The notes under the pieces were generated by a model. The model was not told the origin of the DNA. It made no database searches and saw only the letters and a program-made list of their open reading frames with translations. The position numbers were made by a program, and so were the translations under genes. Below are positions 6,508 to 63,169 of a stretch of 64,000 bases of DNA, piece after piece. This DNA comes from a virus. Every line of letters starts with the position of its first letter. Position 1 is the stretch's first letter. The stretch spans positions 96,001-160,000 of IMG/VR virus record IMGVR_UViG_3300031088_000737; one strand, given 5' to 3'.

Positions 6508-7317
6508 ATGTCAAAGCATGTCGATATGTCATTTACTGCAGCTAATAAGGAAATATTAAGTGTATCTGGGGTTACTTTTGATAACACTTCCTTCCCATTT
6601 GTCTACGAAGACATTGAAAAAGTTGTTATTTTAGTTGATGATGACTTTGAAGAAACAAAAGTAGTTGGATTAAATATTTACTTATTGGTTGATCATGAAA
6701 CCAAACTCTTTAGATTTAATATCTTCGATAGCGATTTAACAACACTCTTTAAAACGATTGATAGTTCAGTAAAACCTCTGGTGATTGGCTTTGACCCTTA
6801 TTTTCAATTAATGAGCGTTAAATTTATACCAAAAGGTATCTATGGCTTATACAAGGATAATGTTAACAAACCTGTTAGAACTGTTTATGATGAATTAGGC
6901 ATAGTAAAAAACTTAACCTATCTGGATGTTGATCCTAATCAGTCGGATTTGAATTATTACAATGCATCTTGTCATACAACCCCTAAGTTTATTGCCTACA
7001 ATGAATTTGGTGAATTGGATGAAGACAATTCGTATTTCTCAATACATAGAAAGAACACCACTTTCATTGTGGCCACTTATAAAGACCACTTAGCTTTAAT
7101 AGAAAATATCACTAAGAAAAAGGCTTTTTTTAATTTGGAAGAACACAAAGTGATGATTGAAAATGAATTGCTTTCTGTTAATGACCTCATCTTATTAAGG
7201 CTCTATTATTCCTTTAATTATTACAAACTTAAATTTAATCTCGAATATCAATCGAAAGAAGATATTTTTAATTTTTCCGATAACGATAAAGCCTTAATTT
7301 CTATGTTATTGTTCTAA
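6508..7317 (+). CDS. Hypothetical protein, paralog of 5644-6456, M-x-x-F tail
   Basis: Own TTGACA promoter and AGGAGG SD; ends FSDNDKALISMLLF. Confidence 0.7.
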   Translation: MSKHVDMSFTAANKEILSVSGVTFDNTSFPFVYEDIEKVVILVDDDFEETKVVGLNIYLLVDHETKLFRFNIFDSDLTTLFKTIDSSVKPLVIGFDPYFQLMSVKFIPKGIYGLYKDNVNKPVRTVYDELGIVKNLTYLDVDPNQSDLNYYNASCHTTPKFIAYNEFGELDEDNSYFSIHRKNTTFIVATYKDHLALIENITKKKAFFNLEEHKVMIENELLSVNDLILLRLYYSFNYYKLKFNLEYQSKEDIFNFSDNDKALISMLLF

Positions 7318-60016: not shown

Positions 60017-60045
60017 TTGACAAAGGTGAAAAGAGTTGGTAAGAT
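60017..60045 (+). promoter_or_regulatory. tRNA-operon promoter TTGACA-N17-TAAGAT
   Basis: Located about 57 nt upstream of the first tRNA. Confidence 0.7.
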
Positions 60046-60101: not shown

Positions 60102-60179
60102 GGGGGCACATGTTCCAAGGGATGGCGAGTTTGCCTTGCACGCAGACTGCGAAGAGTTCGATTCTCTTTGTCTCCACCA
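60102..60179 (+). tRNA. tRNA-Ala(TGC)
   Basis: G3:U70, loop CT-TGC-AC, TTCGA T-loop and encoded CCA. Confidence 0.85.
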
Positions 60180-60220
60180 AATTTGTTGACTTGATGTGTT
60201 ATAGAACAAACTTAAAATAT

Positions 60221-60295
60221 GGGCTGTTAGTTTAACTGGGAAAATACCTGCCTTGCACGCAGATGTTCAGAGTTCGATTCTCTGACGGTCCACCA
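60221..60295 (+). tRNA. tRNA-Ala(TGC)
   Basis: GGGCTGT/ACGGTCC acceptor with G3:U70; CCA. Confidence 0.88.
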
Positions 60296-60319
60296 GATTA
60301 GTTGTAGAAAGAGAATTAT

Positions 60320-60396
60320 GTCTGCGTAGCTCAGTTGGATAGAGCATCCGCCTTCTAAGCGGATGGTCGTTGGTTCGAATCCAACCGTAGACACCA
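60320..60396 (+). tRNA. tRNA-Arg(TCT)
   Basis: TCCGC-CTTCTAA-GCGGA anticodon arm; CCA. Confidence 0.92.
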
Positions 60397-60416
60397 AATT
60401 AGATGTAACCAGATAT

Positions 60417-60491
60417 GGGCTGATAGTTTAACTGGGAAAACACTTGCCTTGCACGCAGGAGTTCAGAGTTCGATTCTCTGTCGGTCCACCA
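60417..60491 (+). tRNA. tRNA-Ala(TGC)
   Basis: Near copy of 60221-60295; G3:U70; CCA. Confidence 0.88.
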
Positions 60492-60508
60492 GATTTAAGT
60501 AATACAAT

Positions 60509-60583
60509 GGGGCTTTTAGTTTAACTGGCAAAACCTTGGGATTTCTCCTAAAGAATATGGTTCGAGTCCATATAGCTCCACCA
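60509..60583 (+). ncRNA. tRNA-Ala-like RNA with aberrant 6-nt anticodon loop
   Basis: GGGGCT/AGCTCC-ACCA acceptor (G3:U70), normal D and T arms; the arm reads TTGGG-ATTTCT-CCTAA. Confidence 0.7.
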
Positions 60584-60598
60584 GTTTATAAGTTTCAT

Positions 60599-60675
60599 GG
60601 GCCATTAGTTCAGTTGGTAGAACGCCTGCTTTGCACGCAGGATGTCATGAGTTCAAATCTCATATGTGTCCACCA
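60599..60675 (+). tRNA. tRNA-Ala(TGC) with one bulged base in the acceptor stem
   Basis: CCTGC-TTTGCAC-GCAGG; the 3' acceptor strand ATGTGTCC is 8 nt long. Confidence 0.8.
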
Positions 60676-60692
60676 GTTTTAAAATTTTATAC

Positions 60693-60766
60693 GGGGTTTT
60701 AGTTTAACTATCGAAAAACAACAAGGAAACTTGTAAATGAAAGGTCGAAACTTTCAGACTCCACCA
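60693..60766 (+). ncRNA. tRNA-Ala-like RNA with GAAA tetraloop in place of the anticodon loop
   Basis: GGGGTTT/AGACTCC-ACCA (G3:U70) and ACAAG-GAAA-CTTGT. The D-loop lacks GG and the T-loop is GTCGAAA. Confidence 0.72.
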
Positions 60767-60781
60767 AATAATGTTTTTTAT

Positions 60782-60857
60782 ATTCTCATAGCTCAACTGG
60801 AAGAGCAATGACCTTCTAAGTCATCGGTTGTAGGTTCGAGTCCTACTGGGAATGCCA
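60782..60857 (+). tRNA. tRNA-Arg(TCT)
   Basis: ATGAC-CTTCTAA-GTCAT; ends GCCA. Confidence 0.9.
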
Positions 60858-60863
60858 AATTAG

Positions 60864-61040
60864 TTAGTTGATGTTTCAACTGATTTAAACGCTACATGTT
60901 GCCTGATTAGCAACTAGTATACTGGTCAAGTATGATTGAAGCAGCTTAATCACTGCAGTCTGACCTCTGATAAGTATATCCGGTAGGTATTTACCGTCAC
61001 TTCGAAGCGTGGAGATATTTATTATCGTTGAAGCGTTAGC
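60864..61040 (+). ncRNA. Unassigned multi-stem structured RNA candidate within the tRNA operon
   Basis: Several nested inverted repeats, closed by AACGCT/AGCGTT; no credible ORF. Confidence 0.45.
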
Positions 61041-61054
61041 GGAAATACTATTAT

Positions 61055-61129
61055 GGGCTGTTAGTTTAGCTGGGAAAATACCTGCCTTGCACGCAGGAGT
61101 GCTGGGTTCGAGTCCCTGACGGTCCACCA
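61055..61129 (+). tRNA. tRNA-Ala(TGC)
   Basis: G3:U70; CCTGC-CTTGCAC-GCAGG; one T-stem mismatch; CCA. Confidence 0.85.
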
Positions 61130-61141
61130 GTTTTGTTGTTT

Positions 61142-61218
61142 GTCCGTGTAGCTCAGTTGGATAGAGCGTCTGCCTCCTAAGCGGAAGGTCGTAGGTTCAA
61201 ATCCTATCACGGACGCCA
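61142..61218 (+). tRNA. tRNA-Arg(CCT)
   Basis: TCTGC-CTCCTAA-GCGGA; ends GCCA. Confidence 0.9.
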
Positions 61219-61248
61219 GTTTTGATATTTTATTTAGAGGATTAATCA

Positions 61249-61782
61249 ATGGTAATTGCTTATGTGGCACCTTTGTTAAAAGATGATTATATTAACGCAA
61301 CCGCTGATAATAAAACTATTAAAGAAAGTCATGATATTCGTGAAAAAATTGTAGCTCGCTCTCTTTATGTATTTGATAAAATTGCTGAGTTGTTGAATTT
61401 AAAATATAATTGGGTTGCTTTTGATACTATTGATTTAGAAAAATATCAAGGTGCCGATAACGGAGAATATGATTATCAGCGTTATTTTGAAACGTTTAAA
61501 TTTTATAGTGATATTGACGAATTAGAATATAAAAATAAAATTATTGATGTTTATTGTAATCAATTTCCATCAAGTTTTATTTATGAAGAATTTGAAGATG
61601 AAGTTCTTGGAACGGCTGAATCAATTAAGCTAGGTATTGATTTAAAAAAAGAAAGAGCAGATAGAAAACGAAAACATGATAAGGATAAAGAAAAAGAACG
61701 CAATAAGATTAGACCAGAAGTAATAGCTTCTATTAAATCTAAATTGAGTGAATTAGAATTATCTTTTGTTGATTTTAAATGA
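61249..61782 (+). CDS. Hypothetical protein embedded in the tRNA cluster
   Basis: SD GAGG; acidic body with a basic coiled tail. Confidence 0.7.
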   Translation: MVIAYVAPLLKDDYINATADNKTIKESHDIREKIVARSLYVFDKIAELLNLKYNWVAFDTIDLEKYQGADNGEYDYQRYFETFKFYSDIDELEYKNKIIDVYCNQFPSSFIYEEFEDEVLGTAESIKLGIDLKKERADRKRKHDKDKEKERNKIRPEVIASIKSKLSELELSFVDFK

Positions 61783-61863
61783 TTTAACAAAGAATAAGGG
61801 AGTTTTACTGTAAAGGTGAAACTGGATTGGAGCCGTGGTTTCCGGGGGGCATTCATTCACTAT

Positions 61864-61940
61864 GGGATTTTAGCTCAGTTGGTTAGAGCATCCGACTCAT
61901 AATCGGCAGGTCGTAAGTTCAAGTCTTACAAGTCCCACCA
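61864..61940 (+). tRNA. tRNA with CAT anticodon, probably Ile2 (lysidine)
   Basis: CCGA-CTCATAA-TCGG arm with C29:G41, resembling ileX-type tRNAs. Met is not excluded. Confidence 0.8.
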
Positions 61941-61956
61941 AATTAGATGTGTATAT

Positions 61957-62031
61957 GGTTCTGTAGCATAACGGTAAATGCACCCCGCTCATAACGGGAT
62001 GATTAAGGTTCGATTCCTTGCAGAACCACCA
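61957..62031 (+). tRNA. tRNA with CAT anticodon (elongator Met or Ile2)
   Basis: CCCG-CTCATAA-CGGG; G1:C72 is paired, so it is not initiator-like; CCA. Confidence 0.8.
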
Positions 62032-62034
62032 GAT

Positions 62035-62163
62035 AGTAGAAAGGTAGCTTAACGGGAGAGCAGCCGGGATGACCCGGTAACTTTAAATCTCATGTCAGAT
62101 AAATTCTCGTAATTTATAGGCCATGTGGATAGTGGTAATGGTTCGAATCCATTGCTTTCTACT
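62035..62163 (+). ncRNA. tRNA-like RNA with no anticodon loop and a 58-nt variable arm
   Basis: AGTAGAAAG/CTTTCTACT closing stem, D arm GCTT..GAGC, GCCGGG-ATGA-CCCGGT and T arm AATGG-TTCGAAT-CCATT. No encoded CCA. Confidence 0.62.
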
Positions 62164-62171
62164 TGCATTTT

Positions 62172-62247
62172 GGGGTTGTAGTTCAGTTGGTAGAACGCTT
62201 GTATGGCATACAAGAGGTCGTGGGTTCGAATCCCATCTTCTCCACCA
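62172..62247 (+). tRNA. tRNA-Ala(GGC) with two acceptor-stem mismatches
   Basis: CTTGT-ATGGCAT-ACAAG; G3:U70; U5/U68 and U6/U67 are unpaired; CCA. Confidence 0.78.
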
Positions 62248-62252
62248 AATAT

Positions 62253-62280
62253 AAAGAGAACTTTCGAGTTCTCTTTTTTA
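62253..62280 (+). terminator. Terminator ending the tRNA operon
   Basis: AAGAGAAC-TTTCGA-GTTCTCTT followed by a T-run. Confidence 0.8.
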
Positions 62281-62338
62281 TTGCTTGATTTTTGAATTTA
62301 TGTTATAATCAATCATTATTTTATTATGAGGAATTATT

Positions 62339-63169
62339 GTGATTAAAAGTTCATTAAAAGATATCAATAAATCATTAAAAACACATTACAAAAGCCCTTT
62401 TAAAGTATCTAATTATAAAGAAGAACTTGAAGGAGAAATAGTCGATTTTGTTGTTATTGAAGATATTAATAAGCGAACACTCGCTCGCTTTCAATACCTA
62501 AAAGAAGATGGTGCTATTATCTCTGGTTACAATGACTCTCCATTATATAAATCAGAACGCGAACAATATTTTCCAGCATATTATGATCAACAACACTTGG
62601 ATATCTATCAAAAAGTATTCGATTTGTTTTATGATAATCCTATTGTAAAAGAATATGTTCAAAAATATTCGCTTGGCACCGTTAATAAAAATATGTTTGA
62701 TATTAGCGATGATCATAGACGTGGCGTCTCATTAATCAAATGTTTCTATTTTTTAGGCAACAGCAGTCGTTCTGATAGTTCTATTGGGCTTCAATATTAT
62801 ATCAATGAACATGGTAAAATCACACCACGAATGAAAATTAAGTTTTCATTCATGACCTGTGGCAGTCTTACTATCTATTATGATTACTCATCTAATAGCT
62901 TTCATTTTGGCAAAGCCAGTTTTAATGAATCCAATAAACTTGTTAAACTTGATGATGAAAAGACGACTGAATTATTTAATATTAAGTCTGGTGAGGTATT
63001 CATTGATGATGAGCATTTAAATCTAATCTTCACTCGTTGGATGTTGGAAATGGGATATCGGTTAAACAAACAAGCTTTTGTCGCTTACAAGATGGATGAA
63101 TTCATTGAACTTGCTGACACAGCAAAAGTGATTGAACATCTAAGTTTGATAAAAATGGCACTTATTTAA
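62339..63169 (+). CDS. Hypothetical protein, family D, M-x-x-I tail
   Basis: GTG start with SD GAGGA; ends EHLSLIKMALI. Confidence 0.7.
   Translation: MIKSSLKDINKSLKTHYKSPFKVSNYKEELEGEIVDFVVIEDINKRTLARFQYLKEDGAIISGYNDSPLYKSEREQYFPAYYDQQHLDIYQKVFDLFYDNPIVKEYVQKYSLGTVNKNMFDISDDHRRGVSLIKCFYFLGNSSRSDSSIGLQYYINEHGKITPRMKIKFSFMTCGSLTIYYDYSSNSFHFGKASFNESNKLVKLDDEKTTELFNIKSGEVFIDDEHLNLIFTRWMLEMGYRLNKQAFVAYKMDEFIELADTAKVIEHLSLIKMALI

Follow-up and report, generated by a model that had tools for sequence, protein, structure and literature searches.

The window analyzed here, a stretch of 64,000 nucleotides from a 181-kb IMG/VR record, contains, within an array of tRNA genes, a 124-nt gene for an RNA which has the shape of a tRNA and carries no anticodon. 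The RNA is real; RNAs of its kind are known, although what they do is unexplained, and it represents a variant among them. The reading that we prefer, with a probability of roughly 70%, is that the gene is maintained and that its product, a tRNA-like RNA with no part in decoding, acts as a tRNA mimic, likely as a decoy or regulator directed against a tRNA-targeting factor. The features of the gene and of its surroundings are collected in Table 1.

Table 1. Features of the tRNA-like RNA gene and of the flanking array; positions are those of the window.
Feature	Position	Strand	Basis and remarks
Entire gene of the tRNA-like RNA (124 nt), from position 1 through discriminator A73	62038-62161	+	RF00005 match, R1 match and L059 copy
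Acceptor stem, 5' strand AGAAAGG	62038-62044	+	Rfam alignment; partner is 62154-62160
D arm: GCUU stem, loop AACGGGA (G18G19), GAGC stem	62047-62061	+	U8 and A9 precede it
Sealed "anticodon" arm GCCGGG-AUGA-CCCGGU, 6-bp stem	62063-62078	+	Fold; unchanged in 3 of 3 variants
Variable-region insert, 58 nt	62079-62136	+	Fold; 54/58 kept in L059; one-sided changes keep pairing
T arm AAUGG-UUCGAAU-CCAUU	62137-62153	+	Rfam alignment and fold; loop varies at position 60 only (U>A, L059)
Acceptor stem, 3' strand GCUUUCU (62154-62160), and discriminator A62161	62154-62161	+	Rfam alignment; followed by CUU
tRNA-Met(CAU), upstream neighbour, 6-nt spacer	61957-62031	+	ARAGORN and Rfam
tRNA-Ala(GGC), downstream neighbour, 10-nt spacer	62172-62247	+	ARAGORN and Rfam
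Promoter-like site TTGACA-17-TAAGAT, TG, before the array	60017-60045	+	Consensus match only
Terminator-like hairpin and T-run, end of the array	62253-62276	+	Brackets the array with the promoter-like site

The relationship of the RNA to known families was assessed by a sensitive Rfam scan of positions 61800 to 62300. The tRNA model RF00005, whose gathering threshold is 29 bits, matched 62038-62161 with 31.9 bits (E 7.5e-5), and matched the copy found in the related sequence L059 with 38.2 bits; neighbouring tRNAs mostly score 54-73 bits on the same model. The acceptor, D and T arms were all aligned, with 55 nt inserted in the variable region and an anticodon arm 1 nt short. The gene was not called by default ARAGORN, nor by a default-filter Rfam run, on the whole window. 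The RNA belongs to the tRNA family, of which it is a divergent member, and is not an unrelated new fold. An earlier reading of the letters alone, the sequence-only reading, had described a tRNA-shaped RNA with canonical D and T arms, a description with which both the alignment and the fold agree; it had also taken a match to a known Rfam family as counting against its inference, and formally there is such a match, as both scores exceed the RF00005 threshold.

The likeness to a canonical class I tRNA includes a 7-bp acceptor stem, U8, a 4-bp D stem, G18G19, a 5-bp T stem, the UUCGAAU loop and the discriminator A. The acceptor and T stems have a 7/5 geometry, A26 lies between the D arm and the sealed arm, and a pair A15:U48 is possible. 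The features read by the anticodon-independent tRNA machinery are all kept, namely the acceptor, A73, U8, the elbow formed by G18G19 and the T loop, and the 7/5 stack. Pair 3:70 is A-U and not G3:U70, as had been noticed earlier, and a G62044·G62154 mismatch is found at 7:66 in the window copy, the other six acceptor pairs being intact. The 3' end at A73 reads ACUU, without an encoded CCA, whereas all of the 12 tRNAs called nearby by ARAGORN encode it, a difference correctly reported by the sequence-only reading. The same reading had held that the closing stem is extendable to 9 bp. Such a stem (AGTAGAAAG/CTTTCTACT) is present in the window, where it is made of six acceptor pairs and three outer leader-trailer pairs, but the outer pairs are lost in the relatives, whose leader sequence differs there.

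The anticodon position is occupied by a 16-nt sealed arm, to be compared with the 17-nt arm and 7-nt loop of a canonical tRNA; the arm may alternatively be read as a 5-bp stem with a 6-nt loop, GAUGAC, and its length is 16 nt either way. The insert consists of an 8-nt linker leading into a long irregular hairpin, with an apical stem AUAAAUU/AAUUUAU and a CUCGU loop. Both the MFE fold and RNAalifold reproduce the cloverleaf, the sealed arm and the insert hairpin, the latter as originally drawn. The predicted energy is -37.4 kcal/mol for the whole RNA (z -2.49) and -10.1 kcal/mol for the sealed arm hairpin alone (z -3.55). The insert alone is an AU-rich, weak hairpin (-9.1 kcal/mol), no stabler than shuffled sequence; because its z is only -0.96, its structure rests on the substitution pattern described below and not on energy. 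An 8-mer common to the upstream tRNA-Met and to the tRNA-like RNA, CGGGAUGA, was evaluated and discarded as not significant.

A canonical anticodon arm, with a 5-bp stem, a 7-nt loop, U33 and a 3-nt anticodon, is absent. The case of an intron-bearing tRNA was analyzed by passing 1220 single-deletion constructs, lacking 30-69 nt each, through ARAGORN. A tRNA was called in 513 of them; 375 of these calls reported a 2-nt "anticodon" in the 6-nt loop GAUGAC, and the other calls placed the anticodon in the insert hairpin, without U33 or a purine at 37. When introns were allowed, ARAGORN proposed a Phe(AAA) tRNA with a 30-nt intron, in a poor drawing. An intron was rejected, since a 7-nt anticodon loop with U33 and R37 did not convincingly arise from any single deletion; by this test (0 of 1220 constructs giving a convincing canonical tRNA) splicing to an ordinary tRNA is not supported. 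The GC-rich hairpin without anticodon that had been pointed out at this position is borne out by its z value and by the 2-nt "anticodon" which is all that ARAGORN reports there after removal of the insert. Almost certainly, a 3-nt anticodon cannot be presented and the RNA is non-decoding.

Other identities were examined and excluded, largely in agreement with the sequence-only reading. The variable arm of class II tRNAs has about 10-24 nt and begins right after position 44/45, and the corresponding region of class I tRNAs has 4-5 nt; a region of 58 nt with an 8-nt unpaired lead-in, combined with a class I-type D arm, is not compatible with a class II tRNA (Leu, Ser, Tyr or Sec). The 7/5 geometry, as opposed to 8/5, 9/4, 8/4 or 9/3, and the lack of a UCA loop exclude tRNA-Sec and allo-tRNAs. 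For tmRNA, pair 3:70 is A3-U70, no tmRNA was called by ARAGORN and no Rfam tmRNA match was found at E<=10. The lone reading frame of the insert, a mini-ORF of 6 codons (MSDKFS) starting with AUG, has a length expected by chance in AT-rich sequence, and is not a tmRNA-type tag frame. YrlA (RF02553) scores 14 bits against a threshold of 69, with a match offset to 62110-62230; none of YrlA, tmRNA and tRNA-Sec fits. The insert matched no Rfam family, and was also rejected as a mobile mini-element or repeat, being present in a single copy in the 181-kb record.

Relatives of the locus were found through ORF177, the protein encoded just upstream, and L059/L060 represent a second lineage. Both L059 and L060 carry the tRNA-like RNA, at L059:1346-1468, identical at 118 of 124 positions (95%). 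In the same alignment, identity is 93-100% for the canonical tRNAs. The five short spacers are identical at 53 of 79 positions, or 57-76% each (Fisher p = 1.5e-7 against the element); ORF177 is identical at 411 of 534 nt (77%, and 72% for the protein; p = 5.5e-7), and the stretch past the terminator falls to 33%. The conserved block shared by the window and L059 stops at the boundaries of the tRNA-like RNA. As judged from these comparisons the RNA is under purifying selection, which argues for a functional ncRNA.

A third variant was found in public contigs, from runs X15 and X16; the four public sequence runs examined offered contigs only, whose RNA or DNA origin is uncertain, and one raw RNA run had zero reads. 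The comparison includes three closely related variants (window, L059/L060 and X15/X16), none of which encodes CCA. Out of 41 pairs, four vary across the three variants (C27U, C55U, A82G and A89G, counted from 62035), each on one side only, and all are still paired: C62061>U in the D stem of one variant keeps a G·U, and the three one-sided changes in the insert also keep pairing. Double, compensatory changes do not occur among these close variants. The other differences are two loop substitutions and the deletion of one G from a GG run beside a bulge. Both L059/L060 and X15/X16 have C at 62154, which gives a G-C pair at 7:66, the G·G of the window being the sole non-pair.

The distribution of the RNA was investigated by pattern and model searches. 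A covariance model, as suggested by the sequence-only reading, was built from the three variants (R1) and scores the window copy at 147 bits; in 210 kb of related loci and in the 437-kb record G001 it retrieved nothing but the known copies. Exact searches gave 0 matches in IMG/VR with the sealed-arm 19-mer and 20-mer, and 0 in the GTDB genomes with a 20-mer. The sealed-arm 18-mer had 41 matches in JGI metagenomes, 40 of them on GC-rich contigs (55-70% G+C); none extends past the 18-mer and they were judged to be due to chance. The D-arm 18-mer had three matches in IMG/VR, corresponding to two ordinary tRNAs (Ala and Val) and one chance match. ORF177 has one relative in IMG/VR, L002 (in G001), without the tRNA-like RNA, and its alignment gave no match when searched against GTDB; for ORF 62339-63169, IMG/VR yielded no relative. 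In L003, L004 and L007, where ORF177 is 66% identical, the RNA is absent at the syntenic place. Within the exact-pattern searches, from which near relatives of the window may be missing, and within the R1 search, the tRNA-like RNA appears to be found in this lineage only.

Two other structured RNAs are located between tRNA-Arg(CCU) and tRNA-Ala(GGC) in L003 (6623-6722, E1, and 6720-6812, E2), as well as in L004 and L007. In E1, a 7-bp acceptor-like stem is accompanied by a T arm CUAGG-UUCAAGU-CCUAG, and the core can form two interleaved 7-bp helices, in a pseudoknot-like arrangement; E2 folds into three hairpins, in a cloverleaf-like manner, with a closing stem of 9 bp. No match was found in Rfam for either.

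The tRNA-like RNA is a member of a plus-strand tRNA array, spanning 60104-62247, for which ARAGORN and the default-filter Rfam run reported the same 12 tRNAs (by ARAGORN 6 Ala, 3 Arg, 2 CAU and 1 undetermined). Spacers of 6 and 10 nt to the adjacent tRNAs, within one promoter-to-terminator unit, imply that normal tRNA processing would release the RNA. Additional peculiarities were observed in the array. A tRNA-like gene at 60509-60583 has G3:U70, an encoded CCA and a 6-nt loop AUUUCU, with no normal anticodon loop; another one, at 60684-60766, has G3:U70, an encoded CCA and a GAAA tetraloop on an ACAAG/CUUGU stem, and is missing from L059, where 15 nt separate the flanking tRNA-Ala and tRNA-Arg. 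The spacer between tRNA-Arg(UCU) and tRNA-Ala (60858-61054, 197 nt) looks structured and is 83% identical in L059, above the short spacers; it has no Rfam match at the gathering threshold. ORF177 (61249-61782), which has no Pfam family, sits within the array. It is missing in the X15/X16 relative, where tRNA-Arg(CCU) abuts position 61791, and lies upstream of tRNA-Arg(CCU) in L003 and L007; because its placement varies between relatives, it behaves as a movable cassette within the array. The acceptor of the downstream tRNA-Ala(GGC) shows U·U mismatches at 5:68 and 6:67, and a U5 to G change in L059 restores a G·U.

We infer that the RNA most likely serves to mimic tRNA, or to act as a decoy, towards factors that bind tRNAs independently of the anticodon. 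It would be co-transcribed with the Ala/Arg/Met tRNA array, cut out by the RNase P and 3' maturation activities that serve its neighbours, and trimmed at its 3' end to A73, with or without subsequent addition of CCA. It would then stay out of decoding and bind a factor recognizing the tRNA body, to which the conserved sealed arm and insert may offer a specific extra surface. By pure inference, the partner is most likely a tRNA-targeting toxin, nuclease or modifying enzyme, which the RNA would divert as a decoy, or regulate. This guess is based on gene content: amplified single-amino-acid tRNA arrays, RtcB, an Rnl1-type ligase-phosphoesterase and Pth2. Extra tRNA copies carried by phages have been shown to counteract defences that cleave tRNAs, in the variable loop among other places (PMC13096335), and the presence of RNA-repair genes and of redundant Ala and Leu arrays fits such tRNA-centred conflicts (PMC13096335).

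A different role, as an amino-acid carrier, was also considered: CCA would be added, and a synthetase indifferent to the anticodon would charge the RNA after recognizing A73, the tertiary core or the long arm in the manner of LeuRS or SerRS; the RNA would then either feed a non-ribosomal aminoacyl transfer or sequester a synthetase or EF-Tu. LeuRS and SerRS do not need the anticodon, and the intact acceptor stem, A73, elbow and T arm, the possible A15:U48 pair, the class II-like length of the arm and the presence in the same array of Ala-identity neighbours also devoid of an anticodon loop would suit such a carrier. However, the arm begins after 8 unpaired nt, unlike those of Ser and Leu tRNAs, the D arm, with its 4-bp stem and 7-nt loop, resembles that of class I, G3:U70 is missing, the synthetase identified in the window is the anticodon-dependent IleRS, and no aminoacyl-transferase gene was seen. 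Moreover, no gene for a CCA-adding enzyme was detected in G000, the 181-kb record, or in G001. Two features, the sealed arm and the absence from all variants of the CCA that is encoded by each tRNA nearby, favour a role in binding or as a decoy over carriage of an amino acid, which we regard as unlikely.

Conservation speaks against the idea that the gene is a decaying duplicate tRNA, a pseudogene that suffered a chance insertion in a fast-evolving array and has no function of its own. Such a duplicate would account for a score of only 31.9 bits on the tRNA model, where most neighbours reach 54-73, for the 7:66 mismatch of the window copy and the missing CCA, for the company of other degenerate tRNA-like genes, one of which (60684-60766) is absent from L059, and for the narrow distribution, which leaves out L003 and L007. 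It would not be expected to be 95% identical next to spacers at 57-76% and an ORF177 at 77% (p about 1e-7), with an insert itself kept, stem substitutions that never break a pair, and relatives whose acceptor stem is free of mismatches and whose copy scores higher, at 38.2 bits; this reading is already disfavoured and appears quite unlikely. Very unlikely, in our judgement, is a cis-acting module for processing or stability, whose tRNA frame would ensure the cutting of the polycistron or protect the 58-nt hairpin as the real effector, in the manner of a natural "tRNA scaffold". The insert and its 8-nt linker are as well conserved as the tRNA frame, and the syntenic slot of relatives holds other structured RNAs closed by acceptor-like stems (E1 and E2 of L003), which would fit an unchanging frame with exchangeable cargo; but the insert is a single-copy, weak hairpin with no Rfam family, no target or partner was identified, and a conserved D loop and sealed arm are needless in a mere processing spacer. 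A broader proposal sees the RNA as one of a set of non-decoding mimics which a giant replicon encodes in its amplified Ala-rich and Leu arrays. The tRNA frame of the RNA would provide maturation and stability, and its invariant sealed arm, displaying an AUG+A complementary to U33-U36 of the two CAU tRNAs directly upstream, would with the insert capture those tRNAs or a host tRNA-targeting defence protein. We consider it quite improbable; if true, the capture would make the RNA a hitherto undescribed type of device for counter-defence at the RNA level or for the titration of tRNAs.

For the RNA read as a non-decoding mimic, precedents exist. Non-decoding tRNA-like RNAs have been known in viral and mobile tRNA clusters since the stable RNAs of T4, none of them, to our knowledge, with an assigned function. 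Species 1 and 2 RNAs of T4 (rnaC and rnaD), products of stable-RNA genes of about 120-140 nt located in the T4 tRNA cluster, at its end, are the closest known kind. As the RNA described here, rnaC has a tRNA-like acceptor and T-arm module; however, it reaches 17.5 bits at most (tRNA-Sec), has a 5' extension and lacks a D arm, whereas the present RNA has a complete cloverleaf. R1 matches neither rnaC nor rnaD, and in T4 only finds a tRNA-Arg, at 18.7 bits, so that the similarity is of kind and not of sequence. The sequence-only reading had spoken of a new tRNA-mimic ncRNA: a conserved, non-decoding, tRNA-shaped RNA is what was found, but its kind has been known since T4 species 1 RNA. Both tmRNA and YrlA gain entry to tRNA pathways by mimicry of the acceptor and T arm; in the RNA described here, it is the molecule's own 5' and 3' ends that make up the acceptor stem. 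The tRNA array units known from bacteria and from mobile elements are dense arrays of redundant tRNA genes and pseudogenes located on mobile or accessory DNA (Tran et al. 2015, PMC4758250). Conserved members lacking an anticodon are not described in that survey, and the arrays reported here differ from those in being dominated each by one amino acid, Ala (mixed with Arg and Met) or Leu.

With its complete cloverleaf, sealed anticodon arm and large insert, and under clear purifying selection between well-diverged flanks, the RNA is an unusually clean example of its kind. Because its replicon is rich in genes for tRNA repair and translation and carries highly redundant Ala and Leu tRNA arrays, it lends itself to examining whether RNAs of this kind serve as decoys where mobile elements and host defences contend over tRNAs. 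Should they be only structural passengers, the case would still warn annotators that tRNA finders silently skip conserved members of the family.

The 181-kb record that includes the window has a G+C content of 31% and is labelled as a provirus. Its gene products include a fusion of an Rnl1-type RNA ligase with a phosphoesterase (RNA_lig_T4_1 and Metallophos), RtcB, two class II synthetases, GAPDH, ClpA, CoaD-CoaE, Pth2 and IleRS, the last being about 33% identical at best to the phage collection. About three quarters of the ORFs of G000 and G001 have no Pfam family. Terminase, HK97 capsid, NCLDV capsid and RNAP beta were not detected in either record, and a PHROGs search on 75 ORFs revealed no structural or virion genes. 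Sequence identical to ORF177 was observed on contigs of 1.3-1.9 Mb (up to 1.86 Mb), ENA ERZ27247443 k141_1011963 being one of the large contigs. The replicon may be a phage, a provirus or a cellular chromosome.

A second array is present on the minus strand of the same record, at G000:C1:77614-79500 (L015:17614-19500). It includes 12 tRNA-Leu genes (UAG, UAA, CAA, CAG and AAG), an unusual composition for its restriction to one amino acid, as well as one tRNA-Gln and one Leu-like gene for which a 4-nt anticodon (cgct) was called. A 4-nt anticodon (agaa), in an 8-nt loop, was also called by ARAGORN for a tRNA of the 437-kb relative (L002:5555-5630), which scores 31.4 bits on RF00005.
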